A stretch of 64,000 nt of DNA from Bacillota bacterium (GCA_023475165.1 JAMCWA010000088.1:130298-194297), one strand, 5' to 3'. Positions 7,035 through 59,590 are shown, numbered from the stretch's first letter. The notes: generated by a model from the sequence alone, not told the origin. Translations and numbers: made by a program.

Positions 7035-7125
7035 GAAGACCTCTCCTAAGCTTTCTCGGGCGGGTTTACCACTCACAGCACAGTTCGTCAGCAGTCTGCT
7101 AAGTGTTCGCCGGAGACGCGAAGCG
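7035..7125. repeat. B-module fragment of dispersed repeat family
   Basis: 'ctttctcgggcgggtttaccactcacagcacagttcgtcagcagtc' matches 'gatttctcgggtgggttaaccactcagaacgcagtttgtcagcggtc'. Confidence 0.5.
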
Positions 7126-14240: not shown

Positions 14241-14669
14241 GTGGCCTTGCAGGCAACCAAGGGCAGCAGCGGAACCTTGGTCGATGTCATCGACCGGCTC
14301 CTGGATAAGGGTCTGGTGATCAATGCCGACATCCTGGTCTCATTGGCGGGGGTGGAGCTCTTGGGGATCAAGATCCGGGCAGCTCTGGCCTCCCTGGATA
14401 CCGCCGCCAGGTACGGTCTTGAGTTTCCCTCCGGCACCAATTATAACACCCAGGCCTGGCGAGCCCTTGATACGGGAAGAGAAAGCTGCCCTCAATGCGG
14501 AAAAACGGCGACAACCGCGGAACTCCTGGAAGAGGGCTGTCCGTGGTGCGGTTGGAAGAGTGCCAAAGCCCGCCTGAAAGAAGCCCAGATGGCCCTTCCT
14601 GAGGTTGAGAAGGTTAACGTAAACCCACCGGAGGAACTGTATAACCCGGACGGACCGGCGGTCGGCTAG
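14241..14669 (+). CDS. gvpJ: GvpA-family paralogue (GvpJ-like) with C-terminal CxxC…CxxC zinc ribbon
   Basis: 'LVDVIDRLLDKGLVINADILVSLAGVELLGIKIRAALASLDTAARYG' is a GvpA fold, followed by 'CPQCGK…CPWCGW'. Confidence 0.85.
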   Translation: MALQATKGSSGTLVDVIDRLLDKGLVINADILVSLAGVELLGIKIRAALASLDTAARYGLEFPSGTNYNTQAWRALDTGRESCPQCGKTATTAELLEEGCPWCGWKSAKARLKEAQMALPEVEKVNVNPPEELYNPDGPAVG

Positions 14670-14800
14670 AAGACCGCTGAAAAACACCCATCTGCGGTGT
14701 GGCGCAATCGCCAGGAGAAGTTCTCCGAAAATGTGGCGTAACTATAGGCGATTGTGTCGCTCCGGCGGCTTGGTGCTCAGCCCATTTCGGGAATTTGGAG
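14666..14800. mobile_element. truncated MITE-like repeat (TIR plus C-module) inserted between gvpJ and gvpK
   Basis: 'ctagaagaccgctgaaaaacacccatctgcggtgtggcgcaatc…gattgtgtcgctccggcggc' matches 30224–30330. Its CTAG contains the gvpJ TAG stop. Confidence 0.7.
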
Positions 14801-25484: not shown

Positions 25485-25570
25485 CCGGCCTCCTGGGCCA
25501 GGGTGACCGATCATTTGCAAACTTCCCTGCCGCCTTCGGCGGCACCGCAAAGGATGAAAACAGCGCTTCA
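25485..25570. repeat. degenerate A-module copy
   Basis: 'cctgccgccttcggcggcaccgcaaaggatgaaaacagcgc'. Confidence 0.5.
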
Positions 25571-25769
25571 GCAGGGGTCTGGGCCAGAAACCTCATTGGC
25601 TGGCCAGATGGGTCAATCGCATGAAACCGCTGACCCCGGCAAACACTCAACGCTGTCTATACCAGTCAAATCGTAACGAAGCGGACCCCCGATACTGGCC
25701 AGGTCATTGAGGAGCTTCGTTCACATCGACCCAGACCCGCCAAGCTGGCAGGAGCTCGACTTTTTCATA

Positions 25770-25995
25770 CTAGGAGATCCCCATGCCGCCTTTTGGCGGC
25801 GCCAAAGAGTAATGAAACAGCAGCGGCGCCCCGGAAGCAGCTGGTTTGTTTCAGGATAGACCCCCATGCCGCCAGCGGCACCAGCAGATGATGAAAACGG
25901 CCGCGGCATGGTGATTGTGGCAGGCGAACGACTGGCGGAGCGCCGGAGTGAGCCGGGACAACGCTCGGCCAAGAAACCTTATTTTCAGGATAGAC
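25770..25995. repeat. two tandem A-module copies
   Basis: 'ccccatgccgccttttggcggcgccaaagagtaatgaaacagcagcggcg…ctggtttgtttcaggatagacc' is followed by a variant 'ccatgccgccagcggcacc…gcggcatgg'. Confidence 0.7.
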
Positions 25996-26021
25996 CACTA
26001 AGGAAATGCGATGGGAAGGTC

Positions 26022-26898
26022 TCACGGGCCGGTCGCTCTGTTTTCTACCACCAGTCCGAGAGACTCCATGGCCTTCCTCAAGACGGACCTCTCCGGTGGT
26101 TCCATCTCCCACAGGGGTGGCCGCACCGGACCCACCGGGAAACCGGCTTCACGCAGAGCTGTCTTAACGGGGATGGGGTTGGCGGTGACAAAGAGCGCCC
26201 GGAAAAGTGGCAGCAACTGGCGATGGATCTCAGCGGCGGTGGTTACATCCCCGGCGAGATGGCTGTAGATCAAACGCGAAATCTCTTTCCCGAGCAGGTG
26301 GGAGGCAACGCTGACCACACCGTAACCGCCCAGGGAGAGAATGGGGAGTAAGAGGTTATCGTCCCCGCTGTAGACCGAAAACCCCGTGGGGGCCTGACGT
26401 AAAATCTCCCCCACCTGATTGAGATCACCGCTGGCCTCCTTGATGGCCACAATGTTCGGTATCCGGGCTAAGCGAAGGGTGGTCGGAGGCTGCAGGTTGA
26501 CCCCGGTGCGACTCGGAACGTTATACAGAAGGACAGGTAGTCGCGTTGCTTCCGCGATGGCTTTAAAGTGCTGGTAAAGTCCCTCCTGCGGGGGTTTGTT
26601 GTAATAAGGGGTTACCAGCATGATGCCCTTGATCCCGGTGACTTCCGCCTTCCTGGTCAGAGCCACGCTTTCCGCCGTGGAATAGGTTCCAGTACCGCCC
26701 AGAACCGCTGCCTTTTCTCCCACAGCCTCTACCACCGTCTCCATCAACTGCAGTTTCTCCGACATAGATAAGGTGGGCGATTCACCAGTTGTTCCGGCGA
26801 CAACGATGCCTTCGGACCCCTCCTCTACCAACCGAAGAGCCAGTTCCCTGGTCCGGATCAGATCCAGGGAAAAATCCCGATTAAAGGGTGTGACCATG
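26022..26898 (-). CDS. dapA: 4-hydroxy-tetrahydrodipicolinate synthase
   Basis: 'MVTPFNRDFSLD…VVAGTTGESPTLS…YNVPSRTG'. Start at Met 26898; the longer ORF upstream is a GC artefact. Confidence 0.9.
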
Positions 26899-26950
26899 GC
26901 GGTGATTAACCTACCAAAGGGCAATTTTCTCACTCCTTCCTGGAGCGGAT

Positions 26951-28162
26951 CTATAGACCGAACTTCTGGTGGAGGGCGCGAACGGCCTTCTCCATATCCC
27001 GGATATCGACAAGACAGGAGATGGTCAGGTGAGAATCGCTGGTCTGCAGGATTGGTACTCCCGCCGCCTGCAAGGCTTCCGCCAGCCTGGCCATCACCCC
27101 CGGGACCCCTCTCATGCCGCTCCCCACCACCGAGACCTTGGCGCACTCGTCCCTGATCTGAAGCTCAAGATTCATATCTTTCAAGATGTGGAGGGCTTTC
27201 TCGGCTTTTTCCCCCGCTACCACGAAGACTAGGAGATCAGGAGTCACATTGATCATGTCCAGACTAACGCCGGCATTGCCCAGCCAACGGAAGACTTTGG
27301 CCGGCCATACCCCCTCCGGTTCGGAGGGAACCCGCACCCGGAATTGCGTCAGACCGGGGAGGTTGGTTATTCCAGTTATGACCTTGCCATTTTCCAGAGA
27401 GGGCCAGTTCCCCTCGAGGGCATAGGACAGGAGGGTGCCGGGATGATCACTGAAGGTGGACTTAATGCGGAGGGGAACATTCCACCGCCGGGCGATCTCT
27501 ACCGCCCGGGGATGAATGACCCTAGCCCCTTCATAAGCCAGCTGAGTGATCTCGTCGTAGGTGGCACCCTCCAGGGTTCTGGCCTCCGGAACAATCCTGG
27601 GATCGGCGGTCTTGACACCTTCCACATCAGTATAAACCTCCACCAATTCCGCCCTCAGGGCGGCCCCCAAGGCCACGGCCGTCGTATCGCTGCCGCCCCG
27701 TCCCAGGGTGGTGATATCGCCGTTCTCCGTTACCCCCTGAAATCCGGCCACCACCACCACCTTCCCTTCGTTGAGATGGCGGAGGACATGATCGGGCTGT
27801 ACCCGCAAGATGTGGGCGTCGCCAAAGTTATCGTCGGTAATGATCCCCGCCTGACCGCCGGAAAGAGCCAAAGCCTCGATCTGAAAACCCTTAAGGGTGT
27901 TCGTAAAGATGACGGCCGAGATGAGTTCGCCGCAAGAAGCCAGGAGATCCATCTCCCGCAGCGCCGTGTCGGGATAGACACTCCTGGCCAGACTGATCAG
28001 GGTGTCGGTGGCATAGGGGTCACCGCCCCGCCCCATGGCGGAGACCACCACCACCAGCAGGGCATCTTGCTGCAGGGCCTTCCGGCAGTGCTCCACGGCC
28101 TTAGTCCTGGCCGGCGGCGTCACCAGAGAAGTTCCCCCAAACTTCTGTACGATAATGCGCAT
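26951..28162 (-). CDS. lysC: aspartate kinase
   Basis: 'MRIIVQKFGGTSL' N-terminus and C-terminal ACT domains. Confidence 0.9.
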   Translation of the reverse strand: MRIIVQKFGGTSLVTPPARTKAVEHCRKALQQDALLVVVVSAMGRGGDPYATDTLISLARSVYPDTALREMDLLASCGELISAVIFTNTLKGFQIEALALSGGQAGIITDDNFGDAHILRVQPDHVLRHLNEGKVVVVAGFQGVTENGDITTLGRGGSDTTAVALGAALRAELVEVYTDVEGVKTADPRIVPEARTLEGATYDEITQLAYEGARVIHPRAVEIARRWNVPLRIKSTFSDHPGTLLSYALEGNWPSLENGKVITGITNLPGLTQFRVRVPSEPEGVWPAKVFRWLGNAGVSLDMINVTPDLLVFVVAGEKAEKALHILKDMNLELQIRDECAKVSVVGSGMRGVPGVMARLAEALQAAGVPILQTSDSHLTISCLVDIRDMEKAVRALHQKFGL

Positions 28163-28188
28163 GACTGTACCTCTCCTCCCTCAGTCTT

Positions 28189-28782
28189 TCATTGCCCACT
28201 CCGACTGATGAGAACAGGTTGCAGCTGTCTTCCCTCCAGGGCGGCCATGACCGTCTCCACCAAGAGAGTAAAGTCGGCTTCCAGCGAGGCGGGTTTTTCT
28301 CTGGGATTGTCCTGACCAAAGGGGATGAAGTATATGTTCCTGCAATTCAAGAGGAAACCGATGTTTTTGGCGTTCAGTCCCAGACCGTCGTTGGTGGCCA
28401 CCCCGATGACCACCGGTCGACCATTGCGCAAGGTCGCCTTGGCCGTCATGGTCACCGGTCCGTCGGTGATGGCATTGGCCAGCCTGGATAGGGTATTCCC
28501 GGTACAGGGCGCGATAACCAGGGCATCGAAAAGCCGCCCGGGACCCACTGGCTCCGCCTCCACAATGCTGGTAATGGGGGTGTGTCCGCTAAGCTCCTCG
28601 ACCTTCCTTATCCAGCCTTCCCAGGTTCCAAAACGGGTGGAGGTACTGCTGACCGAGCTTGAAAGAACAGGGAAGACCTCCGCCCCCAGGGTGACCAGTC
28701 GCTCCATCTGGGGTAAGACCTTGGAAAGGGTGCAATGGGATCCCGTTAGAGCCAACCCGATTCTCTTGCCTGACAGATCCAC
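28189..28782 (-). CDS. dpaB: dipicolinate synthase subunit B
   Basis: Flavoprotein-like 'KRIGLALTGSHCT…VIAPCTGNTLSRLANAITDGPV'. GTG start with GGAGGTG RBS. Confidence 0.9.
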   Translation of the reverse strand: MDLSGKRIGLALTGSHCTLSKVLPQMERLVTLGAEVFPVLSSSVSSTSTRFGTWEGWIRKVEELSGHTPITSIVEAEPVGPGRLFDALVIAPCTGNTLSRLANAITDGPVTMTAKATLRNGRPVVIGVATNDGLGLNAKNIGFLLNCRNIYFIPFGQDNPREKPASLEADFTLLVETVMAALEGRQLQPVLISRSGQ

Positions 28783-28802
28783 TTCTTCTCACCTCCTCAG
28801 TC

Positions 28803-29187
28803 CTAGATTTCCATGCCGCCTGCGGCGGCACAAAGAATGAAACAGCAGCTAACTCTTTGCTGGGAGATCCCCATGCCGCCTTTTGGCGGCGCCAAAGAGT
28901 ATTGAAACAGCAGCGGCGGCCTGGCAGTAGCTGGTTTGTTTTAGGGTAGAGTGCTGACAAACTGCGTTTTGAGTGGTTAACCCACCCGAGAAACCGTTAG
29001 GGCGAGAGCTCAAATCAGCCCAGATGCTAGGAGCAACAAGGCTCCGAGGCGAGGCGTACTGGGCGGTACGTTGAGCGAGGAGCCGACGGAGCGACAATCG
29101 GCAATAGTAACGCCCCTTGAACAAGGTGGATCTTTCTTGCAGATTGCGCCACACCGCAAGATGGGGGTTTTTCAGAAGTCTCCTAGG
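28803..29187. mobile_element. full composite repeat copy (A-A-B-C plus TIR) inserted between dpaB and dpaA
   Basis: It ends '…ttttcagaagtctcctagg'. The CTAG supplies the dpaA TAG stop. A 17-bp tandem duplication 'gacgtcggcaaactctt' follows, at 29187–29220. Confidence 0.8.
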
Positions 29188-30081
29188 ACGTCGGCAAACT
29201 CTTGACGTCGGCAAACTCTTCAGGAAACTCCCTGGCCAAAAAGGAGGCAACAACTTGGAAAATGGCTCGTCCTGCCGTCCTGGGAGCGACCTTGCCGGGC
29301 AACCCCAGAGCCCAGATCGTCTTTAGGCCTAGCTCCCCGGCTCCTGCAAAATCGGTTCCACCGGGGGCGGAAGCCAGATCAATGATCAAGAGTTCAGGTT
29401 GGGCTTTCCCCAAGACCTCCCGGTTCAGCACCAGCGCCGGGATGGTATTAAAGACTACTGTACCCTCCCGGATGACCGCGCCCAGGTTGCGAAGGGGCAC
29501 CGGGCAGCAGCCCATCTCGGCGGCCCGGGCCAATTGCGCCGGGTTTCTGGCCACGACCACTGTGCGCGCCCCCAATCCGCAAAGCATTCTGGCCAGGGTC
29601 AGCCCCGTCCGCCCCAGTCCTAGAACCAGGGCGGTACTGCCGTGCAGGGTCACTGGCAGGTTCTCCATGGCTACTTGCAGGGCCCCTTCCGCGGAAGGAA
29701 TGGAGTTGAGAATGGCAAAGTCGTCACGCTCCCGGTAAGGTATGACCCTAACCCCAGCGGCCGCCGCAGCTACTTCCAAAGCCGGATTACTGCTGCCAAA
29801 AAAGAGGAGGCCCCCCTTCTGCATGGACGCCAGGGCGGTTTCCTCCAGCTTCATTTCGCAACCGTAAGCGTTCTTAATACCTCCAGAGGAGTCCAAGCCC
29901 AAAACCGGGCCTACGACCAGACGGGCACCGGCCAGGGCTTCCGGCAGACCGCGGGTGTAGCCGATGCCCTCCGGCACAAGATTAACCGGGCAACCAGCAA
30001 TAACCACTTCCTCCACCCAACCGCGAAAATAGCCGGCCGCCTCTACCTCCCTTCTATCACCTACCAAGATGGCCAGTTTCA
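29183..30081 (-). CDS. dpaA: dipicolinate synthase subunit A
   Basis: Rossmann 'GLGRTGLTLARML'. Start at 'MKLAILVGD' (30081). The last 11 codons are encoded by the 17-bp duplication and the element CTAG. Confidence 0.85.
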
Positions 30082-30223
30082 TGTTGTCCCTCCGCCCCTC
30101 CGAATCAACCTCCGTCCTCGGCCCCACCCGGGTTCTTCGCGCCAACCTCCAGCCTCCAACCTCTAACCTCCGCCCTTTTGGCCTATCCCAGTATATGTGA
30201 CCCGAAGTCTGTGGGTGCCTGCC

Positions 30224-30465
30224 CCTAGGAGACCGCTGAAAAACACCCATCTGCGGTGTGGCGCAATCTGCAAGAAAGAACCTTTTCATTAAAGGGCGTT
30301 GCTATTGCAGATTGTCGCGCCTGCGGCTGGTGCTAACGTATTTCTCTATGCGCCTCCGCGCCAAGCCTTGTCGCTCCTAGTATCTGGGCTGAATTGAGGT
30401 CTCGCCTTAACGATTTCTCGGGTGGGTTAACCACTCAGAACGCAGTTTGTCAGCGGTCTCCTAGG
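30224..30465. mobile_element. MITE-like element (C+B modules) with perfect 15-bp terminal inverted repeats
   Basis: 'cctaggagaccgctg…cagcggtctcctagg'. No ORF. The C and B modules match seven or more other loci. Confidence 0.85.
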
Positions 30466-30593
30466 TTCCTCTGGCATTAGGGACGGCAAAGCCCCGCCGC
30501 CCTTGGGAGATCATTGCCAAGGCCGGTCTGCTGCCCTGTCGCTGAAGCTTTCGAAGGGTCGCCAAGAGCTTTGAAGTCTAGAAATCTCATGAC

Positions 30594-30628
30594 TGAAAAA
30601 AAGAGCCCCTGTCTCGGACAGGGACTCC
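30594..30628 (-). terminator. rho-independent terminator downstream of the YflT-like gene
   Basis: Minus strand: CCCTGTC-cga-GACAGGG, then GCTC TTTTTTT. Confidence 0.7.
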
Positions 30629-30654
30629 CCGGTCAGACCGATGTTTCCAAGTTT

Positions 30655-30705
30655 CTCGAGCGAGTTAACCATTCAAGACGCAGTTCATCTGCTGTCTCCT
30701 AGTGG
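30655..30705. repeat. B-module fragment
   Basis: 'gagttaaccattcaagacgcagttcatctgctgtctcctag'. Confidence 0.5.
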
Positions 30706-31196
30706 GTCTCAACATCAGTGGCACCGTTTTGCCGGAGGATGGAGGCTGCCTCACTCACCTTCTTCTCATCGGATTTAATGACGGTCAGGATGCTGCCCCG
30801 CTTAACTTCTTCCTCATAAAAGCGACCCCTGGCCTCGGGGATCCCCAGGTCCAGCAGTCCACCAGCGATGCCCCCGGTTACAGCTCCGGTCAAACCGGCG
30901 GCAATGGGTCCAGCCGCCAGGATGGGACCGACCCCGGGTATAGCCAGGGCTCCCGCCCCGGCCAGCAGGCCGGCCAAACCGCCAATGGTTCCACCGGTTA
31001 GAGTACCGTTAGAAAGGTTGTCATTGGCGAAACCACCGCCCTGCCCGCCTCTTGTACCAGTCTGACCGCCCCGAGCGGTAGCTTCCTTGGCCACTATGGA
31101 GATCTCGTTGTTGGTAAAGCCTTTTCTGCGCAAATCGTCAACAGCCGTCTCAGCTTGTTGTCGTGACTTAAAGACACCGATCACCGTCTTGGACAT
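30699..31196 (-). CDS. YflT-like general stress protein with glycine-zipper segment
   Basis: 'VIGVFKSRQQAETAVDDLRRKGF…ISIV' N-terminus. 'GGLAGLLAGAGALAIPGVGPILAAG' is a glycine zipper. C-terminus 'ILTV…ASILRQNGATDV'. Confidence 0.55.
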   Translation of the reverse strand: MSKTVIGVFKSRQQAETAVDDLRRKGFTNNEISIVAKEATARGGQTGTRGGQGGGFANDNLSNGTLTGGTIGGLAGLLAGAGALAIPGVGPILAAGPIAAGLTGAVTGGIAGGLLDLGIPEARGRFYEEEVKRGSILTVIKSDEKKVSEAASILRQNGATDVETH

Positions 31197-31294
31197 TTAA
31201 AAACCTCCTTCTTGTTGACCTACCATTAGTATGAGAAGGAGGCGCCTGGCTTTATTCAATTTCTGAAGATCTTAACAACCCAAAGAGCGAAAAC

Positions 31295-31615
31295 CTAACG
31301 CCTTTGCCCGCGCAGGGTTAAGCCAAAATAGGGCTGGAGGATGGCCAGGAGCATGGCCAGGGCTGCCAGTGGGTCAAAGGCCATTCCCCACAGCCCGATC
31401 CGATCGGGCGGGTTAAGTTTGAGAAATTGGATGATCCCGGCCAGGGCCAAATAGATTCCGGCGGCCATGGCCAGAAAGTCTTTGAGGGCATCCGCCAGAG
31501 GAGAGGCGACGGCTGGAGTCTCCTCCCTGGTCGTCACCCGTAAGGACACCCGCCGTACTATCGAACTTACCACCAGAAGAAAGAGGATGGCCACCGCCAC
31601 TGGGGTCATCGCCAT
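31295..31615 (-). CDS. hypothetical small membrane protein
   Basis: 106 aa with 3 predicted TM helices. No family recognised. Confidence 0.35.
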   Translation of the reverse strand: MAMTPVAVAILFLLVVSSIVRRVSLRVTTREETPAVASPLADALKDFLAMAAGIYLALAGIIQFLKLNPPDRIGLWGMAFDPLAALAMLLAILQPYFGLTLRGQRR

Positions 31616-31619
31616 GTCC

Positions 31620-31710
31620 CTGCTCCCCCCTGGGAGACCGCTGGAGAACTCCCATCTGCGTGCCAGGCGGGCTCCCGCCCGTCTGAAACCGCAGTTCGTC
31701 AGCAGTCACG
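31620..31710. repeat. repeat fragment (TIR plus B-module end)
   Basis: 'gggagaccgctggagaactcccatctgcg…aaaccgcagttcgtcagcagtc'. Confidence 0.5.
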
Positions 31711-31905
31711 ACAATAGTTGCTTAATATCTTGTATGCCCGCAGGTCGCAAAAAAGACCGGGCTGGGCCGCTTTGCCTTCCCACGCCGGGCAAAAAAAATC
31801 CGAGTCCTCCTCGGTGTTTGGTTTTCAGGGTCAGCACCTCGGCCAACCCCTTGCCCAGCTGTGATGACGACAGGTTGGCACCTACTGGTGGCGAAAAAGC
31901 ACGCT

Positions 31906-32112
31906 CTATCTACCGCTTTGCAACCTCAAAGCCCGGACGATCAGGAAATCCAGTTGCCGTGAGAGGGTCCACACCGCCTGAATCCTCCCGCTATCGTATT
32001 CAGGCCCGCTGTCCTCTTGCAGCTGCCTTCGGAGTCGCTCGATCTCCAAGAGCAGCTCTGCTTCGCTCAAAAACGACCTCGTCCTCCTTTTTTTCTCTTT
32101 TGAGGTGAACAA
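31906..32112 (-). CDS. Spo0E-like sporulation regulatory phosphatase
   Basis: 68 aa. 'LLLEIERLRRQLQE…LSRQLDFLIVRAL' resembles the Spo0E helix-hairpin motif (SQELD.LI). Confidence 0.5.
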   Translation of the reverse strand: MFTSKEKKRRTRSFLSEAELLLEIERLRRQLQEDSGPEYDSGRIQAVWTLSRQLDFLIVRALRLQSGR

Positions 32113-32251
32113 ATCGCCAAATAGTCGCCTAATCCTTCAGCCAGGCTCAACCATATGCGATTATACTACACTCCCCCGGTCACGTCCAATTAAATCGATC
32201 GCAATTTCCGACAAGATCATACCCTTCAGATCGACTTTTTTCGATAAAAAA

Positions 32252-32715
32252 CTATTTCCGTAGCCCAGTATGGCCAAAACCTCCCGCCCCACGCTGCGTC
32301 GCCTCCAGTTCCTCAACCTCGACCAGTTCCGCCCGAAGCACCGGTTGGAGGACCAATTGGGCGATCCGGTCGCCGCGCCGGATGACAAAGGGCTCTTTCC
32401 CGAGGTTAATGAGAATAACCTGGACCTCTCCCCGGTAATCACTGTCAATGGTACCGGGGCTGTTCAAGAGGGTTACCGAATGTTTGAGGGACAGACCGCT
32501 CCTGGGACGCACCTGACCCTCGTACCCGGGTGGAACGGCCAAAGATAACCCCGTCGGGACCAGGGTCACCCCTCCAGCCGGTAGCGTTATTTCCGCCTCG
32601 ACGGCGGCGTAGAGATCCATCCCGGCCGCTCCCTCCGTCATGTAGCGAGGAAGAGGTAGATCCTCAGTCCCCTTGCGGCGTCGCACCCGGACGATGATGT
32701 TCTGGCCCTGTCTCA
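32252..32715 (-). CDS. dut: dUTP diphosphatase
   Basis: 'AAGMDLYA', 'RSGLSLKH', '[11 protein letters not shown]', and 'GDRIAQLV'. Start is Met 32715. Confidence 0.85.
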
Positions 32716-32735
32716 TCCGAAAAACCCCCTTTGTC

Positions 32736-33040
32736 TTGGAGACCGCTGGAAAACACCCATCTGCGTTGCCGCAATCCGCCGGAGGACTCTTCCTAAAAAT
32801 GGGACGCGCCTGTGGCGGATTGCCGGGCAATCGGCCCGCAACAACTTGCCATCAAGTCAGGCGTCGGCTAAGGCCGATTGTGGCGCAATTCGCCAGGGGA
32901 GCTTTCCTGGTCAGATGGTGCATGACTACGACGAATTGTGTCGTTCCGGCGGCTCCTCACTCAACGTACCGCCCAGTACGCCTCGCTTCGGAGCCTTGTC
33001 GCTCCTAGCATCTGGGCATTCTTGAGCGGTCTTGGCCCAA
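32736..33040. mobile_element. composite repeat copy with internal duplication
   Basis: 'cttggagaccgctggaaaacacccatctgcg…ggcgattgtggcgcaat…cttgtcgctcctagcatctgggc…gagcggtcttggcc'. Confidence 0.7.
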
Positions 33041-33089
33041 CAGTGTGGCTAAAGCCGTCAGAAGGACTTTCGTTATCAAGCCTTTTATA

Positions 33090-33243
33090 GACTATGGCGT
33101 CTTTCCTCGGGCAGGTAACCACTCAAACCGCAGTTCGTCAGCATTCTACACGGAAACAAACCAGCTACTTCCAGGACGCCGCTGCTGTTTCACTACCCTT
33201 TGGCGCCGCCAAAAGGCGGCATGGGGGTCTCCTAGGAGACCTT
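33090..33243. mobile_element. B(partial)+A modules in reverse orientation ending in an abutted TIR–TIR palindrome
   Basis: '…ggcggcatgggggtctcctaggagacc'. The CTAG supplies the TAG stop of the M16 peptidase. Confidence 0.7.
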
Positions 33244-34494
33244 CTCCCGCCCGCCAGGAAGGAGACGGCTCAGCCGCTTTTCACTGATTGGTCCAACCGC
33301 CGCCGCCGACAGGTCATCAATCTGCAATACCAACTCGGCGATGGCCGCAAGATCCTCCAGAGTAACGGCCTCAATCTTGGCCAGGAGCTCATCCAAACTC
33401 AAAACCCGGCCAAGCAAGATTTCCGAGCGGCCCAAATGACTCATCCGACTCCCAGTGCCCTCCAGACCCAGCATGAGCCCGCCCTTTAACTGTTCCTTGG
33501 CCCTCACCATTTCCTCCCGGCTTACTTCCCCCTGGCGAAGGGCTTGCATCTCCCTTTGGATCAGGCTAACAACCCGCTCCAGATATCGCGAGCTCATCCC
33601 GGCATAGACGGTGAAAAGACCGGCATCGTCAAAGGAAGACGGATAGGAATAGATGGAGTAAACCAGACCCATCTCCTCCCTCACCTTTTGGAAGAGCCTG
33701 GAGCTGGAGCCTCCCCCCAGGATGGTGTTTAGGACATTGAGCGAATAGTTGCGTTCGTCACCGGTGGGTAGTCCTCTGGTGCCCAGACAGAGATGGACCT
33801 GTTCCGTCCGGCGTTTTTTTAAGAGGACGCCGGGCAAGTCCAGCGGCTTCTCCCCCGTTGGAAGGTCGGACCTGCTTCCCTCCCAGGCGTCAAAAGCCCC
33901 TCCCACCAGGTCAAAAACCTCCTTGGCCTGGACATGTCCGGCTACGGACAGGACGGTCTGGCCCGGAACATAATTCTCTCGAAAATAACCCAAGATGTCT
34001 GCCGCCCGCATTCCTGCGATGACCTCCTTGCTTCCCAGGACGGGTCGACCCAGGGGGTGACCGTCCCAGCGGCTGCGGGCAAAAAGGTCATGTACTTCTT
34101 CATCCGGGGTATCCTCATACATCTTGATCTCTTCCAGGATTACACCGCGCTCGCGTTCCATATCCCCCGGATCAAAGCGAGGTGACAGGATCATGTCGGC
34201 GAGGACCTCGGTGGCTATCCCCAGATGCTCGTCCATGACTTTGGCATAATAGCAGGTATACTCCTTGGTGGTATAGGCGTTGATCTGACCCCCCAGACCT
34301 TCAATGGCTTCCGCCAGCTGGCGGGCTGTCCGCTTCTCCGTCCCTTTGAAAAGGAGGTGTTCGATGAAATGGGAAATCCCAGCCTGATCATCCCTTTCCC
34401 GGCGTGAACCTACTCCTACCCAAACCCCTATGGAGACGGAGCGGACGTGGGGTATTTCCTCCACCAGTATTCTCAGCCCATTGGGCAATACCAT
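33232..34494 (-). CDS. M16 family zinc peptidase (pitrilysin-like)
   Basis: Inverted zincin 'HFIEHLLFKGT' motif. Probable start is 'MVLPNGLRILVEE' (34494); 34530 is an alternative. Confidence 0.8.
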   Translation of the reverse strand: MVLPNGLRILVEEIPHVRSVSIGVWVGVGSRRERDDQAGISHFIEHLLFKGTEKRTARQLAEAIEGLGGQINAYTTKEYTCYYAKVMDEHLGIATEVLADMILSPRFDPGDMERERGVILEEIKMYEDTPDEEVHDLFARSRWDGHPLGRPVLGSKEVIAGMRAADILGYFRENYVPGQTVLSVAGHVQAKEVFDLVGGAFDAWEGSRSDLPTGEKPLDLPGVLLKKRRTEQVHLCLGTRGLPTGDERNYSLNVLNTILGGGSSSRLFQKVREEMGLVYSIYSYPSSFDDAGLFTVYAGMSSRYLERVVSLIQREMQALRQGEVSREEMVRAKEQLKGGLMLGLEGTGSRMSHLGRSEILLGRVLSLDELLAKIEAVTLEDLAAIAELVLQIDDLSAAAVGPISEKRLSRLLPGGREKVS

Positions 34495-34535
34495 CCGCTG
34501 AAACAGATTCTCTCCTCCCTTACTCCCCATCAAGG

Positions 34536-34556
34536 ATAAAAACCCCTCGCGGGGTT
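34536..34556 (-). terminator. rho-independent terminator after pnp
   Basis: Minus strand: AACCCCGCGAGGGGTTTTT. Confidence 0.7.
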
Positions 34557-34606
34557 TATCGATCGGCAGCTCTTTTCGGCCGTATCCGAGAGCCAAAGCA
34601 GGAACC

Positions 34607-36745
34607 TTAACGACGCTTCGGACCTGGCAGCGGTGGTCGTTCAGCATTATCCTTTTTTGCTTTCTCTTGGCGCAGCGCCTCTTTGTGTGAGAGATTGATG
34701 CGGCCGCGATCGTCGATCTCTACCACCTTGACCAGAATCTCATCGCCGACATTGACCACGTCCTCGACCTTCCCCACTCGCTCTTCCGCCAACTGCGAGA
34801 TGTGGACCAGTCCTTCCTTCCCCGGCAAGAACTCCACAAAGGCACCGAAATTCATGAGCCGGACGACCTTACCCAGGTAGACTGAGCCCACTTCAGGATC
34901 GCGGGTTAACGATTCGATGATGGACAGCGCCTTTTGACCCGACTCCATATCCGCAGCGGCGATAAAGACCCTTCCGTCCTGCTCCACATCGATCTTGGTC
35001 TTCGTTTCCGAGATGATCCGGTTAATGATCTTCCCACCCGGTCCGATGATATCGCGGATCTTCTCCGGATCGATCTGAGTAACCAGGATCCTGGGGGCAT
35101 AGGGCGAAAGCTCTTTCCTGGGCTCCGGCAGGACCGCTGTCATCTTGTCCAGGATAAAGAGACGTCCTTCTCGGGCCTGTTTCAAGGCCGTACTCAGGAT
35201 TTCCCGGTTGACACCGCCAATCTTAATATCCATCTGTAGGGCCGTTACCCCCTCCCTGGTCCCGGCCACCTTAAAGTCCATATCCCCCAGGGCATCTTCT
35301 AAGCCCTGGATGTCCGTCAAGACAGCAAACCGACCTCCCTCCTCGATGAGGCCCATGGCCACGCCACCTACGGGGGCCTTAACGGGAACCCCGGCGTCCA
35401 TGAGGGCCAGGGTACTGCCGCAAACGCTGGCCATAGAGGTGGAGCCGTTGGATTCCAGGACCTCTGAAACTACCCGGACGGTATAGGGAAAATCCGTCTC
35501 CGGGGGAAGCACCGGCTCCAAAGCCCGTTCGGCCAAAGCCCCATGCCCGATCTCGCGCCGGCCGGCTCCCCGGAGGGGTCGCGCCTCGCCCACGCTAAAG
35601 GGGGGGGAAGTTGTAATGGTGCATGTAGCTTTGGCCTCTTCATATCCTACATCATCCAGGGGTTGGACGTCCCCTACCGCCCCCAGGGTGGCCACAGAGA
35701 GGACCTGGGTTTGCCCCCGGGTGAAAAGCCCGCTGCCGTGGGTCCGAGGCAGAATGCCCACTTCCACCGAGATGGGCCTGATTTCGTCGGTTCTTCGTCC
35801 ATCTGGCCGGATACCTTCCTCCAGGATCATCCGCCGAACTTCTTTCTTCAAAATATCCTTGAGGACCGCCGCGATATCCTTTTCCCTGTCTGGCCATTCC
35901 TGGAGCAGGGCTGCCTGAACCTCTTTCTCAATCTCGTCGATGGTTTCCTCACGGCGGAGCTTATCTTTAATGGTCAGGGCTTCCCGCAGGCCCGCCCCGC
36001 CCCTCTCCTCGACCCGCTCGCGCAGGGCCTCTTCGATCTCATAAAGAGGGATCCGCCGCTTGGGTTTGCCCACCTCGGCCACGATCTTCTCCTGGAAATC
36101 GGTCAGGGTCTTGATAAACTCGTGACCATAAAGAATGGCCTCCAACATCGACTCCTCCGGGATCTCCCTGGCCCCGGCTTCCACCATCAAGATGGCTTGC
36201 CTGGTTCCGGCCACCACCAGGTGCAGGTCGCTCTTTTCCGCTTCTTCCCGCTTGGGGTTAATAATGAAACGACCATCGACCCGGCCAACTATCACCGCCC
36301 CTATTGGCCCCTCAAAGGGGATATCAGAGAGAGAAAGAGCGGCCGAGGCACCGATGAGAGAGCACACCTCCGGGGCATGGTCATGATCCACGGACAGGAT
36401 GGTGCTGATGATCTGGACATCGTTGCGGAAACCTTTTGGGAACAAAGGCCGAATGGGGCGGTCGGTGAGGCGGGCAGCCAAAATGGCCTTGGTCGGAGGT
36501 CGTCCTTCCCGCCGGTGCCAGTTCCCTGGTATCCTGCCTACAGCGTAGAGCCGCTCCTCCACATCGACGGTTAGAGGGAAAAAATCAATCCCTTCCCGCG
36601 GTTCGGCCGAGCTGGTGGCGGTAACCAGGACGACGGTATCGCCGTAGCGTACCAGAACAGCTCCGTTGGCTTGCTTGGCCAACTTACCGGTTTCAATGGT
36701 CAAAGGTCTACCGGCTAATTCTAAGGTAAAGGTTCTGTATTCCAC
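34607..36745 (-). CDS. pnp: polynucleotide phosphorylase
   Basis: 712 aa with two RNase PH domains, KH and S1. N-terminus '[37 protein letters not shown]'. Confidence 0.95.
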
Positions 36746-39308: not shown

Positions 39309-39324
39309 GACTGCCTGAAAAGGC

Positions 39325-39375
39325 CTCGGCGTGGCGACGGGCAGGTTAACCCGTCAGAACGCAGTTTGTCAGCTA
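39325..39375. repeat. B-module fragment
   Basis: 'gttaacccgtcagaacgcagtttgtcagc'. Confidence 0.5.
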
Positions 39376-40337
39376 TCGGCTAAAGCCCCCCGCACCGCGG
39401 TGATAACCTTCTCTCTGGCCTCATTTAAGGGAAGAGATAGGGTGCACCCAGCGGCACGGGGATGCCCACCCCCGTCAAAATGGCTGGCCACACGGCTCAC
39501 GTCCACTTGGTGGCGGGAACGTAAGGAGACGCGCACCTTCCCGTCACCCGTCTCCCGAAAAAGGAGGCCGACCTCAACCCCGCGGATGGCCCGGGCATAG
39601 TTAATGATACCCTCGGTTTCCTCATCGCTGGCTCCCGTCTCCTCCAAAGCGGCTCGGCTGATCACCAACCAGGCCACCTTTCCATCCGGGGTCAACTCCA
39701 GAGTCTCCAAGGCCCGCCCAAGAAGGCGCGCGCTGGAAAGAGACCTGGTCTCAAAGGCGTTTTCGGCCACCTGAGCCGGCTTGGCCCCCAGTCTCACCAG
39801 TTCCGCCGCCACGCGGAAGGTGCTCTCCCTGGTACTCTCATACCGAAAGGAGCCGGTATCCGTAACAATGGCCGTATAAAGGCAGGTAGCGATCGCCGGG
39901 CTGATGTCTACCTCCATGCTCCTCAATAGCTCATAGATCTGCTCACCTACCGCTGCCGCCTGTACGTCGACATAGTTATACTGCCCAAAGCCGGCGTTAG
40001 TGCCGTGGTGATCGATGTTGACTACTAAAGCTACCCTCGCCAAAAGCTTTGCCGCCTCCCCGACTCGCGTCGGGTCACCGCAATCTACCAGTACTCCCAC
40101 CCGGAAATCCCCCTCAACCTGGCGCCAATCCGCGATTTCTCCGGACCCAGGCAGGAACTGGTAGATCTCCGGAAGGGGGTCAGACCGCACCACCACTGCT
40201 TTTTTGCCCAGGAGCCGGAGGGAGAGGCCCAGGGCCAGGGCGGAACCGAGGGTATCCCCGTCGGGCTGGACATGGGTGAAAATGAGAAAACCATTTTCCC
40301 GTTGAAAGAGTTCGGCCAGGTCTTTAGGAGACTCCAT
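39369..40337 (-). CDS. nrnA: DHH-family bifunctional oligoribonuclease / pAp phosphatase NrnA
   Basis: 'FTHVQPDGDTLGS', 'DHHGTN', and the DHHA1 C-terminus. Start at 'MESPKD'. Confidence 0.8.
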   Translation of the reverse strand: MESPKDLAELFQRENGFLIFTHVQPDGDTLGSALALGLSLRLLGKKAVVVRSDPLPEIYQFLPGSGEIADWRQVEGDFRVGVLVDCGDPTRVGEAAKLLARVALVVNIDHHGTNAGFGQYNYVDVQAAAVGEQIYELLRSMEVDISPAIATCLYTAIVTDTGSFRYESTRESTFRVAAELVRLGAKPAQVAENAFETRSLSSARLLGRALETLELTPDGKVAWLVISRAALEETGASDEETEGIINYARAIRGVEVGLLFRETGDGKVRVSLRSRHQVDVSRVASHFDGGGHPRAAGCTLSLPLNEAREKVITAVRGALADS

Positions 40338-45245: not shown

Positions 45246-45292
45246 CGCTAGGAGACCGCTTAAAAAGGGTTTTCCAGCGGTCTCCTAGGTTT
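45246..45292. repeat. solo-TIR palindrome of the MITE family between nusA and ylxR
   Basis: 'gctaggagaccgcttaaaaagggttttccagcggtctcctagg': a 10–11 bp stem with a 14 nt loop. The CTAG supplies the nusA TAG stop. Confidence 0.8.
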
Positions 45293-47134: not shown

Positions 47135-47405
47135 GGCCGCCGAAAAACCTCCCCCTCTGTGGCGCAACCATTTCCTGGTCGGGCAGGCCACTGAAACCCA
47201 GCCGGTCAGTGGTCGCCCAGGAGACTGCTGACGAACTACGTCTTGAGTGGTTAACCCGCCCGAGATACCGTTCGGGCGAGACCGCTCAAAAATGCCCAGA
47301 TGCTAGGAGCGACAAGGCTCCGAAGCGAGGCGTACTAAGTGGTACGTTGAGCGAGGAGCCGCCGGAGCGACACCGCAGATGGGTGTTTTTCAGCGGTCTC
47401 CTAGC
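47135..47405. mobile_element. MITE-like repeat copy (C and B modules, TIRs)
   Basis: 'ggccgccgaaaaacc…gttaacccgcccgagataccgtt…cagcggtctcctagc'. The TIR encodes the last 5 codons and the TGA stop of murC. Confidence 0.8.
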
Positions 47406-54155: not shown

Positions 54156-54311
54156 CGGGTCCCCCCACCGTAAGCTCCACCCCAGTTTGTCATTCCCTTA
54201 TCCTTCCCGCCTAACCCGGTGGCCATACCCGGTGACAACAAAATAACCCACAAAAAAGGGACTTCGCAGGACGAAGCCCCTCGGGGTTCCCTAACCCTTC
54301 TGTTGTCCTTT

Positions 54312-54557
54312 CCTAGGAGACCGCCGAAAAACCCCCCTCTGCGGTGTGGCGCAATCTGCAAGAAAGAACCTTTTTATGAAAGGGGCCTTACCATTGCAGA
54401 TTGTCGCTCCGGCGGCTCCTCGCTCAACGTACCACCTGGTACGCCTCGCCTCGGAGCCTTGTCGCTCCTAGCATCTGGGCTGATTTGAGGTCTCGGCCTG
54501 GCGGTATCTCGGGTCGGTTTTACCATTCAAAACGCAATTCGACGGCCGTCTCCTAGG
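54312..54557. mobile_element. MITE-like repeat copy (C+B modules, TIRs)
   Basis: 'cctaggagaccgccgaaaaacc…gcggtgtggcgcaatctgcaagaaagaacc…gccgtctcctagg'. The CTAG supplies the scpB TAG stop. Confidence 0.8.
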
Positions 54558-55849: not shown

Positions 55850-55885
55850 CTTGAAAGATGAAGCTTTTTCAGCGGTCTCCTATCT
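55850..55885. repeat. TIR fragment
   Basis: 'gctttttcagcggtctcctatc'. Confidence 0.4.
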
Positions 55886-57741: not shown

Positions 57742-59088
57742 TTACGAACCAGTGGCCACCAGATAACCCTCTCCCCTGGCCCGCAGCCTTTCCGGCATGA
57801 TATCATGAGCCACCAAATCGGCATAGGTTTCCCGGCGCACAATAAGGTCGGCCTGACCACTGTGCACCAAGACCACCGCCGGACGACCAAAACGGTTGTA
57901 GTTGCTGGCCATGGAATAGTGATAGGCGCCCGTGGAAAAGACAGCCAGAAGATCGCCCGGGGTGACCCTGGGTAAGGGGGCGTCCCAAAGGAGCATATCC
58001 CCCGACTCACAAAACCGCCCAGCAATGGAGACCACGTGCTCCAAGGGGGCGTCGGCCCGGTTGGCCACTATCGCTTCATATTTCGCGCCATAGAGGGCGA
58101 CCCGGGGATTATCAGCCATACCGCCGTCCACGGCCACGTAGGTTCGCACCCCGGGGATCTCCTTGATGGAACCGATGCGGTAAAGGGTGAGGCCGGCATC
58201 CCCGATGATGGAACGGCCCGGCTCCAGGATTAGCCTCGGCGCCTCCAGACCCAGCTCACGGACCTTCCGCACGACGGTTTCGACCACGTCCTTCAGAAAG
58301 ACAGCTACCAGAGGTGGATCATCCTGGGAAAGATAGCGGATCCCCAAGCCACCACCCAGATCCAGTTCCTTCACCGCCAGCCCCAGCTCTCGCTTCACCC
58401 GGGCCACAAAATTCAGTAATACTTCCGCCGCCAACTGGTAGGGGGCCGCTTCAAAGACTTGGGAACCGATATGGCTATGGAACCCCAACAGTCTTATGTT
58501 TCTTAGACTCATGGCCAGGCGGACCGCCGAAAAAGCTTGGTCCCCGACCAAACCAATGCCGAACTTGGAATCAACCTGACCGGTTTGAATGTACTCGTGG
58601 GTATGGGCTTCGACCCCGGGGGTCAGCCGCAAGAGGATGCTGGCCTTCTTCCCCTGGCGAGCAGCCAGAGCATTTAGAAGCTCCAGTTCATAGAGGTTGT
58701 CGACCACGATGCGCCCGACCCCGGATTCCAGGGCCAGGTTGAGCTCCTCTTCCGACTTATTGTTGCCGTGAAAGAAGATTTTCTCCGGCGGAAAATCGGC
58801 CCTCAGGGCGGTGTAAAGTTCCCCGCCCGAGACCACATCCAGCCCCAAACCCTCTTCATCCATCAATCGACACATTGCTGTAGTCAAGAAGGCCTTTCCA
58901 GCGTAAAGGACGAGGCTGTTGGGATAGGCTCGGACCAAGGTCTCCTGATAAGCCCGCGCCTTGCGGCGGATAGTGGCCTCATCCATGACATAAAGCGGTG
59001 TCCCGAAGATCTGGGCCAAATCGACGGCATCACAACCCCCGATCTCCAGGTGGCCGGCATTGATCTTAATGGTCTCGTTGTAAGGCAA
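57742..59088 (-). CDS. lysA: diaminopimelate decarboxylase
   Basis: PLP-dependent fold-III 'YAGKAF' and 'GGGLGI'. TTG start ('PYNETIKINAGHLEIGG') after a GGAGGAG RBS; the longer ORF is an artefact. Confidence 0.85.
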   Translation of the reverse strand: MPYNETIKINAGHLEIGGCDAVDLAQIFGTPLYVMDEATIRRKARAYQETLVRAYPNSLVLYAGKAFLTTAMCRLMDEEGLGLDVVSGGELYTALRADFPPEKIFFHGNNKSEEELNLALESGVGRIVVDNLYELELLNALAARQGKKASILLRLTPGVEAHTHEYIQTGQVDSKFGIGLVGDQAFSAVRLAMSLRNIRLLGFHSHIGSQVFEAAPYQLAAEVLLNFVARVKRELGLAVKELDLGGGLGIRYLSQDDPPLVAVFLKDVVETVVRKVRELGLEAPRLILEPGRSIIGDAGLTLYRIGSIKEIPGVRTYVAVDGGMADNPRVALYGAKYEAIVANRADAPLEHVVSIAGRFCESGDMLLWDAPLPRVTPGDLLAVFSTGAYHYSMASNYNRFGRPAVVLVHSGQADLIVRRETYADLVAHDIMPERLRARGEGYLVATGS

Positions 59089-59590
59089 AGGTACTTCACT
59101 CCTCCATAAATTGATGGAAAGATAGGCTGCTCCGGGTCGGGAGGCGGCCCGGTGGGAGGCCCGGCAAAGTCTGCCGGCGTCTTGGCTACCATAGCTTTTC
59201 AGCCATCTCCTCCTCACTCCGAACATGACTCGCAACAAATACAAAAACGTCCGAGCGTATCCACCCGGACGCACCTATCCTGGGATACCCCCTCTCTCCC
59301 TCATTGTGAGATAGCGCTCCACTGGTAACCAAGGGAAGAGCCACCAGTGACAGTCCGGCAACTCTTCGTTGCCGGCCCAGCCTGATCACCTGGGCGGTTA
59401 TCAGACTTCGGCGGAGATCCCTTTCCTCGCCCTTCCTGGCTGCCTTGCTCCAGGCGGTACTCTTGATCCTCCGCGCCTCTACCTCACCTCTTGGAGAGAT
59501 GAGGTAATCAGTATTAAATTGACACCGTGCAAGTCAAACCTTGGAACTACTCTAATTTTAACATGTCCACTCTCGGGGCGCAATCATTTT

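Follow-up and report, generated by a model that had tools for sequence, protein, structure and literature searches.

In the window, as we call the whole 64-kb stretch of DNA analysed here, the two genes for dipicolinate synthase are separated by a mosaic of repeats. From comparison of this mosaic with other loci we consider it probable that non-autonomous elements of the IS1182 family have inserted in a single CTAG between dpaA and dpaB, and that a 17-bp tandem duplication at the end of dpaA is a separate, one-off event. The insertion between the two genes is real, but a fairly ordinary event.

Both subunits of the dpaAB (spoVF) operon are found and each is intact: DpaA scores 287.8 bits with the DpsA equivalog profile NF006162 (cutoff 261, residues 1-286 matched) and DpaB 303.4 bits with NF006161 (cutoff 156, residues 1-194 matched). 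The start region of dpaB aligns with the ribosome-binding site and ATG of a 63%-identical relative (L004), and downstream of dpaB follow aspartokinase and dapA. The gap between dpaA and dpaB is 400 nt (28783-29182), so that the adjacency or overlap usual for this operon is not found here. It had been claimed that dpaA and dpaB are normally adjacent or overlapping, and five relatives bear this out. The distance from the dpaA stop to the dpaB start in these is -11 nt (L001), -8 nt (L038, Ammonifex), +4 nt (L037), 18 nt (L004, protein P0002, with a 63% identical DpaA and the order TAA, ribosome-binding site, ATG) and +28 nt (L036), and none of the five has an insert between the genes. A DpaA scan of a genome collection outside this organism and its close relatives gave two distant loci only (41-45% identity), with no empty site, and the DpaA protein search returned no sequence with an identity between 63% and 100%.

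The repeat mosaic is 384 bp long from CTAG (28803-28806) to CTAG (29183-29186), and its dpaB-side end lies 6 nt short of the dpaB Shine-Dalgarno sequence (28790-28796). This is in good agreement with the earlier note, which described a composite element of 385 bp beside the dpaB ribosome-binding site. The insert is indeed composite, being built of dispersed repeat modules that we name E, A and, for a truncated A, A'. Seen from the dpaA side their order is CTAG, E (29186..28948), A (28950..28860), A' (28859..28807) and CTAG (28806..28803). This copy of E is full length, 83-87% identical to the two other full copies (30224-30465 and 54311-54555) and 6% from the family consensus in a five-copy alignment; its inner terminal repeat (about 28943-28962) is degenerate and fused to A. 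The A module is a direct repeat of 25770-25860 with 91% identity. The A' fragment matches positions 6-55 of the A model (nhmmer E-value 1.4e-4) and is also recognised when the A copies are compared. The junction between E and A recurs elsewhere in the window, where 28860-28979 and 33116-33235 form an inverted repeat of 120 nt with 90% identity. This suggests that E and A moved as one unit and were not put together on site.

Across the window we find three full-length copies, two variants and at least seven fragments of E, which makes at least 12 loci, and the A module at a minimum of six loci (Table 1). E is 239-245 bp and A 91 bp in length, and both are non-coding, with only spurious overlapping ORFs. 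The full E copies are bounded by the inverted repeats CTAGGAGACCGCTGAAAAAC and CTAGGAGACCGCTGACAAAC, and a search for the 20-nt terminus CTAGGAGACCGCTGAAAAAC with up to three mismatches gives 11 matches in the window, while 0.01 are expected. E is therefore short and non-coding, has terminal inverted repeats, exists in dispersed copies and has termini in common with autonomous IS elements, all of which are characteristic of a MITE. One half of the A module is a GC-rich hairpin and the other a 'tail', and these two sub-modules alternate at 25521-25915, 28803-28950 and 2082-2155. A and A' are without a full terminal inverted repeat and could be a REP-like family of their own, found alongside E without being part of it. 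Among 38 fetched loci the E core or the A module was seen only in contig L003 of the same organism.

Table 1. Genes, repeat copies and gene ends of interest, in window positions
Feature	Position	Strand	Remarks
dpaA (dipicolinate synthase subunit A)	29183..30082	minus	299 aa; from the ORF list and the NF006162 profile match
dpaB (dipicolinate synthase subunit B)	28189..28782	minus	197 aa, intact; GTG start
dpaB translation start	28780..28796	minus	Shine-Dalgarno GGAGGTG (28796..28790), 7-nt spacer, GTG (28782..28780); read from the sequence
Sigma-K-like motif AC-N17-CATAnnnT	30190..30216	minus	some 108 nt ahead of the dpaA ATG; weak consensus match, candidate operon promoter
CTAG, dpaA-side junction	29183..29186		putative insertion target or short flanking repeat; holds the dpaA stop codon
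Perfect 17-bp tandem duplication	29187..29220		29187-29203 and 29204-29220; unit GACGTCGGCAAACTCTT
E element, putative MITE of 239 bp	28948..29186	minus	outer terminal inverted repeat CTAGGAGACTTCTGAAAAAC (29186..29167)
A module, 91 nt	28860..28950	plus	starts CTGGGAGATCCCC; hairpin GCCGCC-TTTT-GGCGGC; nhmmer E-value 1.6e-30
A' fragment, 57 bp	28803..28859	plus	truncated A (hairpin half); opens with the dpaB-side CTAG
Second full-length E copy	30224..30465	plus	upstream of dpaA; inverted relative to the dpaA-dpaB copy
Third full-length E copy	54311-54555		the three full copies are mutually 83-87% identical
E variant, internal deletion	47216-47405
E variant, expanded	32735-33151
E fragments and solo ends	7042-7100, 14666-14786, 30651-30701, 31629-31708, 39321-39378, 55856-55883
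41-bp mini-element, terminus to terminus	45248-45288
A module copies	25770-25860, 28860-28950, 33145-33235		partial copies at further sites
TAG-in-CTAG stop, gas-vesicle protein gene	14669
TAG-in-CTAG stop, dpaA	29183
TAG-in-CTAG stop, YflT-like gene	30699
TAG-in-CTAG stop, M16 peptidase gene	33232
TAG-in-CTAG stop, nusA	45285
TAG-in-CTAG stop, scpB	54553
TGA-in-terminus stop, Mur ligase gene	47390
TGA-in-terminus stop, class-I tRNA synthetase gene	55869
TGA-in-terminus stop, DHH-family gene	39369

The termini of E lead to a known transposon family. We scanned a metagenome collection for the exact 20-mer terminus, with either purine allowed at position 15, and obtained matches in 31 contigs. 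Eight of these contigs have the terminus in inverted pairs with a distance of 1.7-1.9 kb, and each pair encloses a single ORF of 517-541 aa with DUF772 and DDE domains; on the NCBIfam model NF033551 (IS1182 family transposase, cutoff 270) the scores for enclosed ORFs are 292 and 303.6 bits. IS1182-type transposases are found in at least 14 of the 31 contigs, and some of them are only 35% identical yet occur with the same terminus. Three other contigs have short terminus pairs of 138-169 bp. The 64-kb window contains no transposase detectable by tblastn. Because the copies in the window encode nothing, they appear to be derivatives and not IS1182 members themselves, and with termini common to IS1182-family elements E would be a MITE that uses the termini of this family. 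There is an earlier description of IS1182-derived MITEs whose direct repeats are 4 bp long (PMC3852290). Judged by its termini, E is a further example of this already known kind of element.

All eight full-length IS copies and the complete MITE ends have CTAG on both sides, and abutting copies have one CTAG in common, as for example GGTCTC-CTAG-GAGACC in L011 and L033. From these flanks we infer that CTAG is the insertion target, with either all four bases or only the TA duplicated. When the flanks of the dpaA-dpaB insert are joined they form GTC-CTAG-GAC, a perfect 10-bp palindrome (GTCCTAGGAC), and the empty site would have been GCCGACGTC-CTAG-GACTGAGGAGG, in which GACTGAGGAGG is the dpaB-side flank of the insert. 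Palindromic targets have been reported for some members of the IS1182 family (PMC5678879), and the metagenomic IS in L026 sits in the middle of a perfect 30-nt palindrome. Since CTAG as the target is found on both sides of every copy, the TAG of dpaA is likely to be older than the insertion. The claim that the CTAG of the element supplied the stop codon of dpaA does not hold up against this: the TAG would belong to the target, and when the insert is removed in silico the DpaA protein is unchanged.

Besides dpaA, five genes in the window have as their stop codon the TAG of a terminal CTAG, and three further genes run four codons into a terminus and stop at its TGA (CTA GGA GAC CGC TGA). This brings the number of genes that end within a terminus to nine in 64 kb. 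An element is missing from just two of the window's C-TAG stops (21864 and 56981). Base composition would predict 234 CTAG tetramers in the window; the observed number is 64, so that the tetramer is depleted, and repeats hold 18 of these. The occupation of CTAG stop codons by this MITE family, which has colonised most of the CTAG-type stops in the window, is a striking observation in its own right.

The 17-bp duplication lies at the dpaA end of the insert. On the sense strand it is AAGAGTTTGCCGACGTC twice, and it encodes (E)EFADV and KSLPTS. The 3' end of dpaA reads GAA GAG TTT GCC GAC GTC AAG AGT TTG CCG ACG TCC TAG, so that the protein ends with EEFADVKSLPTS and the stop codon TAG (reverse complement of 29183-29185) lies inside the CTAG at 29183-29186. 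The tail of DpaA is KSLPTS in the current state and is predicted to be the same with the duplication and without the insert. With the insert and without the duplication the protein would end in LGDF, and with neither of them in LGLRR, at a TGA within the dpaB Shine-Dalgarno sequence, which is the typical coupled arrangement. An effect on the function of DpaA is unlikely, since the altered residues 294-299 lie past the end of the profile match at residue 286 of 299, and since the C-terminal tails differ freely in both length and sequence when DpaA is aligned with 18 homologs (19 sequences in all). The earlier note had proposed a remodelled C-terminus for DpaA. This is true in that the duplication sets the last six codons, but only unconserved residues past the conserved domain change. 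When DpaA C-termini are aligned no ortholog has the same tail; it is found only in the MAG protein P0001 from the same organism, which also has the same repeats.

The duplication itself is unusual in the window. TRF reports a period of 17, exactly 2.0 copies, 100% identity and a score of 68, which is the maximum in the window, and this is the sole perfect duplication of at least 15 bp in the 64 kb. The 17-mer is not found elsewhere in the window, even with three mismatches. The boundary of the duplication abuts the C of the terminal CTAG to the base. With about 30 termini in 64 kb, we estimate the chance that the sole duplication abuts one of them at roughly 1 in 1000. Alongside the occupation of CTAG stops, a duplication that abuts a terminus exactly is among the more interesting side results of this study. 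That the 17-mer was carried in with the element from another locus is ruled out, because it is unique in the window. Replication slippage is not favoured: the unit is preceded by G and ends with C, and it starts with A and is followed by C, and this lack of microhomology at the flanks of the unit argues against simple slippage.

The order of the two events raises the question whether dpaA was already altered when the element arrived. One possibility, which we regard as tentative, is that the duplication came first and is unrelated to the element. In that case dpaA would already have ended with KSLPTS and TAG 20 nt before dpaB, and the later MITE would have left DpaA unchanged. The gene ends in the window point in this direction, as six of the nine gene-end insertions are of the type with a pre-existing TAG and only two C-TAG stops are unoccupied. 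The spacing fits too: with the insert removed and the duplication kept, the same DpaA protein is obtained and dpaA and dpaB are separated by a normal 20 nt, compared to 18 nt in L004 and 28 nt in L036. It would, however, make the exact abutment to CTAG a coincidence, unless a transposase had acted earlier at the same target. The two 17-mers are also identical while the E copy has drifted by 6% from its consensus, which argues weakly for a later duplication; the chance of zero difference between the 17-mers is about 0.13 if the E copy and the duplication are of the same age and neutral. We slightly prefer the order in which the insertion came first and the duplication later, and give it about an even chance.

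A further suggestion, to which we assign a rather low probability, is that the duplication is a 'solo' footprint of an IS1182-type transposase. Staggered cleavage at the junction of CTAG and terminus would have been filled in and rejoined with no element between the two copies. Such a footprint could result from an abortive integration, or from an integration with a long direct repeat that was followed by precise excision. According to ISfinder, direct repeats in the IS1182 family can be as short as 2 bp and as long as 60 bp (PMC7335449). If the suggestion is true, the footprint would be natural evidence for a variable long stagger behind these reported lengths.

It is improbable that the duplication is the target-site duplication of the element or a direct by-product of its insertion, with the CTAG of the element giving a new stop and a new C-terminus of DpaA, as had been proposed. 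The exact abutment to the terminus and its low estimated chance would fit such an origin, as would the direct repeats of up to 60 bp that ISfinder gives for the family (PMC7335449). But both copies of the 17-mer are found on the dpaA side, and the dpaB-side flank has none. The IS and MITE copies examined have nothing but CTAG at their flanks, and when about 55 other true termini from the window and the metagenome loci are compared, none shows a duplicated flank of at least 6 bp. As a classical target-site duplication the 17-bp repeat can be rejected, as there is not one copy per side and other insertions do not have a repeat of the same length. The TAG, as part of the CTAG target, would moreover be older than the element.

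For the expression of dpaB, the content of the insert is of interest. The insert had been described as highly structured, and this is not what we observe. Folding z-scores against dinucleotide shuffles are -1.36 for the whole insert, -1.00 for E and -1.02 for A with A', so that with a z of about -1 the folding is no better than that of shuffled sequence. At the gathering threshold Rfam gave only a lysine riboswitch elsewhere in the whole window and no match to a repeat, and between 28700 and 30750 there was no match at an E-value of 1 or below. The insert contains no sense-strand terminator (a hairpin with a U-run), and a scan of 28000-31400 gave no sigma-70-like promoter. With the strict sigma-K consensus we obtained no match in the whole window. 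A loose sigma-K motif has two minus-strand matches in 64 kb, of which one is the candidate upstream of dpaA (Table 1), and none inside the insert. Because a sense terminator and promoter-like sites are absent from the insert and a sigma-K-like motif lies upstream of dpaA, dpaB is most likely co-transcribed from the dpaA promoter by read-through and translated from its own intact ribosome-binding site. The dependence of dpaB on read-through, which the earlier note had proposed, is plausible. We find it very hard to believe that the insert is instead a selected regulatory device, such as a structured RNA, an attenuator or an internal promoter, which uncouples dpaA and dpaB and is not selfish DNA. 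The insert is kept in two assemblies, the operon requires balanced subunits and there are local GC-rich hairpins in the insert, all of which could be expected of such a device. But the same modules are found at a dozen or more unrelated loci, and the results for Rfam, folding, terminators and promoter-like motifs described above all speak against it.

An assembly or sequencing artefact in this repeat-rich region can be discarded for the duplication and the insert: repeats commonly break or mis-join assemblies and MAG contig L003 has chimeric ends, but the 34-bp feature is well inside a single read, and MAG contig JAMCQG010000127.1 (GCA_023379645.1), from a second assembly of the same organism, matches the window base for base from dpaA through the insert to dpaB, while it differs from the window elsewhere by one 3-bp indel and two SNPs.

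The observations can be combined in the following way for the reading that we prefer, IS1182-family non-autonomous elements in one CTAG with a separate duplication. A composite MITE of 327 bp (E with A, 28860-29186) would have been mobilised as a unit, as the same E/A junction exists at 32735-33235, and the 57-bp truncated A' would be a second piece of the insert. Both pieces would have entered one CTAG at the centre of GTCCTAGGAC, past the end of dpaA and ahead of the ribosome-binding site of dpaB. Insertion at CTAG would leave a CTAG on each side, and the reading of the upstream gene would be preserved up to the CTAG. As every insertion recreates the CTAG target, this would also explain the mosaics. 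A staggered break has probably occurred at the junction of flank and terminus, and its repair by fill-in and rejoining would have produced the 17-bp duplication. A transposase that acted on the terminus or the target could have made this break, or else a nuclease that cut where the hairpin element has its base. Irregular events at IS1182-family ends have precedents in the direct repeats of variable length given by ISfinder (PMC7335449) and in the tandem duplication of IS1272L (PMC5678879). The duplication would have shifted the frame, so that DpaA ends with KSLPTS at the pre-existing TAG. The DpaA domain would be untouched, and the translational coupling with dpaB would be lost.

These results provide a worked example of a CTAG-targeting MITE family that is found inside operons and at the ends of essential genes without damage. 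A reason why such a MITE may be harmless at gene ends is that insertion regenerates its target, which overlaps the stop codon or lies just ahead of it. The information can also facilitate annotation in this lineage. For instance, protein tails such as LGDR before a stop codon, and TAG stops followed by GAGACC, can serve as markers of repeat termini, and assemblies of the lineage are likely to break at these termini. The effect on sporulation is probably small, as neither subunit of dipicolinate synthase is damaged. With dpaA and dpaB no longer closely coupled, the stoichiometry of the subunits could still change.

Other bacteria also have modular repeats between genes that are transcribed together with their operon, as for example REP and BIME in enterobacteria, BOX and RUP in pneumococci and Correia elements in Neisseria. 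The dpaA-dpaB insert has in common with these that short hairpin modules form mosaics between operon genes, often just past stop codons. Repeats of this type are tolerated in transcripts, which is also how we read the insert. There is no sequence relationship between the insert and any of these repeats, and the E part of the insert can be linked to an enzyme for its mobilisation, a DDE transposase of the IS1182 type. The 17-bp duplication can be compared with IS1272 and IS1272L of Staphylococcus (PMC5678879). These belong to the same IS1182 family and show a preference for palindromic targets, for which GTCCTAGGAC is the counterpart here, and in IS1272L a short tandem duplication, of 25 bp, has arisen at one terminus. 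However, IS1272 replaces the inverted repeat of its target and makes no target-site duplication, whereas CTAG is kept on both sides here, and IS1272L duplicates its own left end, whereas here the flanking host DNA is duplicated. For E itself the comparison is with the MITEs derived from ISMac2 in Methanosarcina acetivorans, which are 160-169 bp long with inverted repeats of 25-26 bp and direct repeats of 4 or 0 bp (PMC3852290). Like these, E is small, non-coding and present in many copies, with terminal repeats of the IS1182 family and a 4-bp flanking repeat (CTAG). Unlike these, E is found in an uncultured Bacillota host, where it forms mosaics with a second type of module (A), and its internal sequence is confined to this organism among the loci examined. 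A further difference is that candidate autonomous partners of E come from contigs of unrelated metagenomes, the part of the host genome covered here being 64 kb.

Nine intact genes of the window have their 3' end inside a terminus of the CTAG-bounded MITE family, and these include nusA, scpB and the genes of a Mur ligase, a class-I tRNA synthetase and an M16 peptidase. The TAG of the terminal CTAG is the stop codon in six of the nine, and a TGA four codons inside the terminus is the stop in the other three (tail LGDR*). Only two C-TAG stops without the element are found across the window. CTAG itself is strongly under-represented: the whole window has 64 sites, where base composition predicts 234 and a Markov model predicts 88, and 18 of the 64 belong to the repeat family. 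Immediately 3' of the nusA stop codon we find a mini-element.

Repeat-associated and neighbouring features (window coordinates unless a contig is named)
Feature	Position	Strand	Details
Terminal CTAG used as gene stop	14666-14669, 29183-29186, 30699-30702, 33232-33235, 45285-45288, 54553-54556
TGA-type gene ends in terminus	47390, 55869, 39369
41-bp mini-element	45248-45288		a back-to-back pair of termini, CTAGGAGACCGCTTAAAAAG / GGTTTTCCAGCGGTCTCCTAG
Full-length IS1182-family element	L026 284-2250		inserted at CTAG
Sigma-K-like motif AC-N17-CATATACT	30190-30216	-	loose motif match
Heptamer repeat	30142-30171		4.3 copies, dpaA leader
Lysine riboswitch	59304-59489	-	Rfam RF00168, 115.9 bits
Alternating A-type hairpin/tail sub-modules, without E	25521-25915 and 2082-2155

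In L026, a metagenome contig with an IS1182-family element that shares the terminus of E, a perfect 30-nt palindrome is centred on the CTAG at which the element sits, and each flank of the element is the exact reverse complement of the other.

Two full-length copies of E lie in opposite orientation on either side of dpaA (28948-29186 and 30224-30465) and are 83% complementary over 125 nt. Recombination between them would flip the orientation of dpaA relative to dpaB. The sigma-K-like motif, one of just two minus-strand matches in the 64 kb, precedes dpaA by about 108 nt, and the terminus of the upstream E copy is about 8 nt away from it. The heptamer repeat reads on the dpaA sense strand as a series of GGAGGTT-like, Shine-Dalgarno-like motifs.

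Three relatives (L036, L037, L038) share the order dapB-dpaA-dpaB-asd-ask-dapA. When the region 26000-34700 is compared with them, the flanking genes for the M16 peptidase, dUTPase, YflT, ask and dapA are retained; dapB and asd are absent from their expected positions and from the entire 64-kb window. Upstream of dpaA, dapB is likewise not found in L004, the relative with a 63% identical DpaA. The lysine riboswitch is located upstream of a 510-aa gene (57742-59274).

Arrays of A-type sub-modules without E occur downstream of dapA and elsewhere in the window. These hairpin and tail sub-modules may represent a separate REP/BIME-like family.
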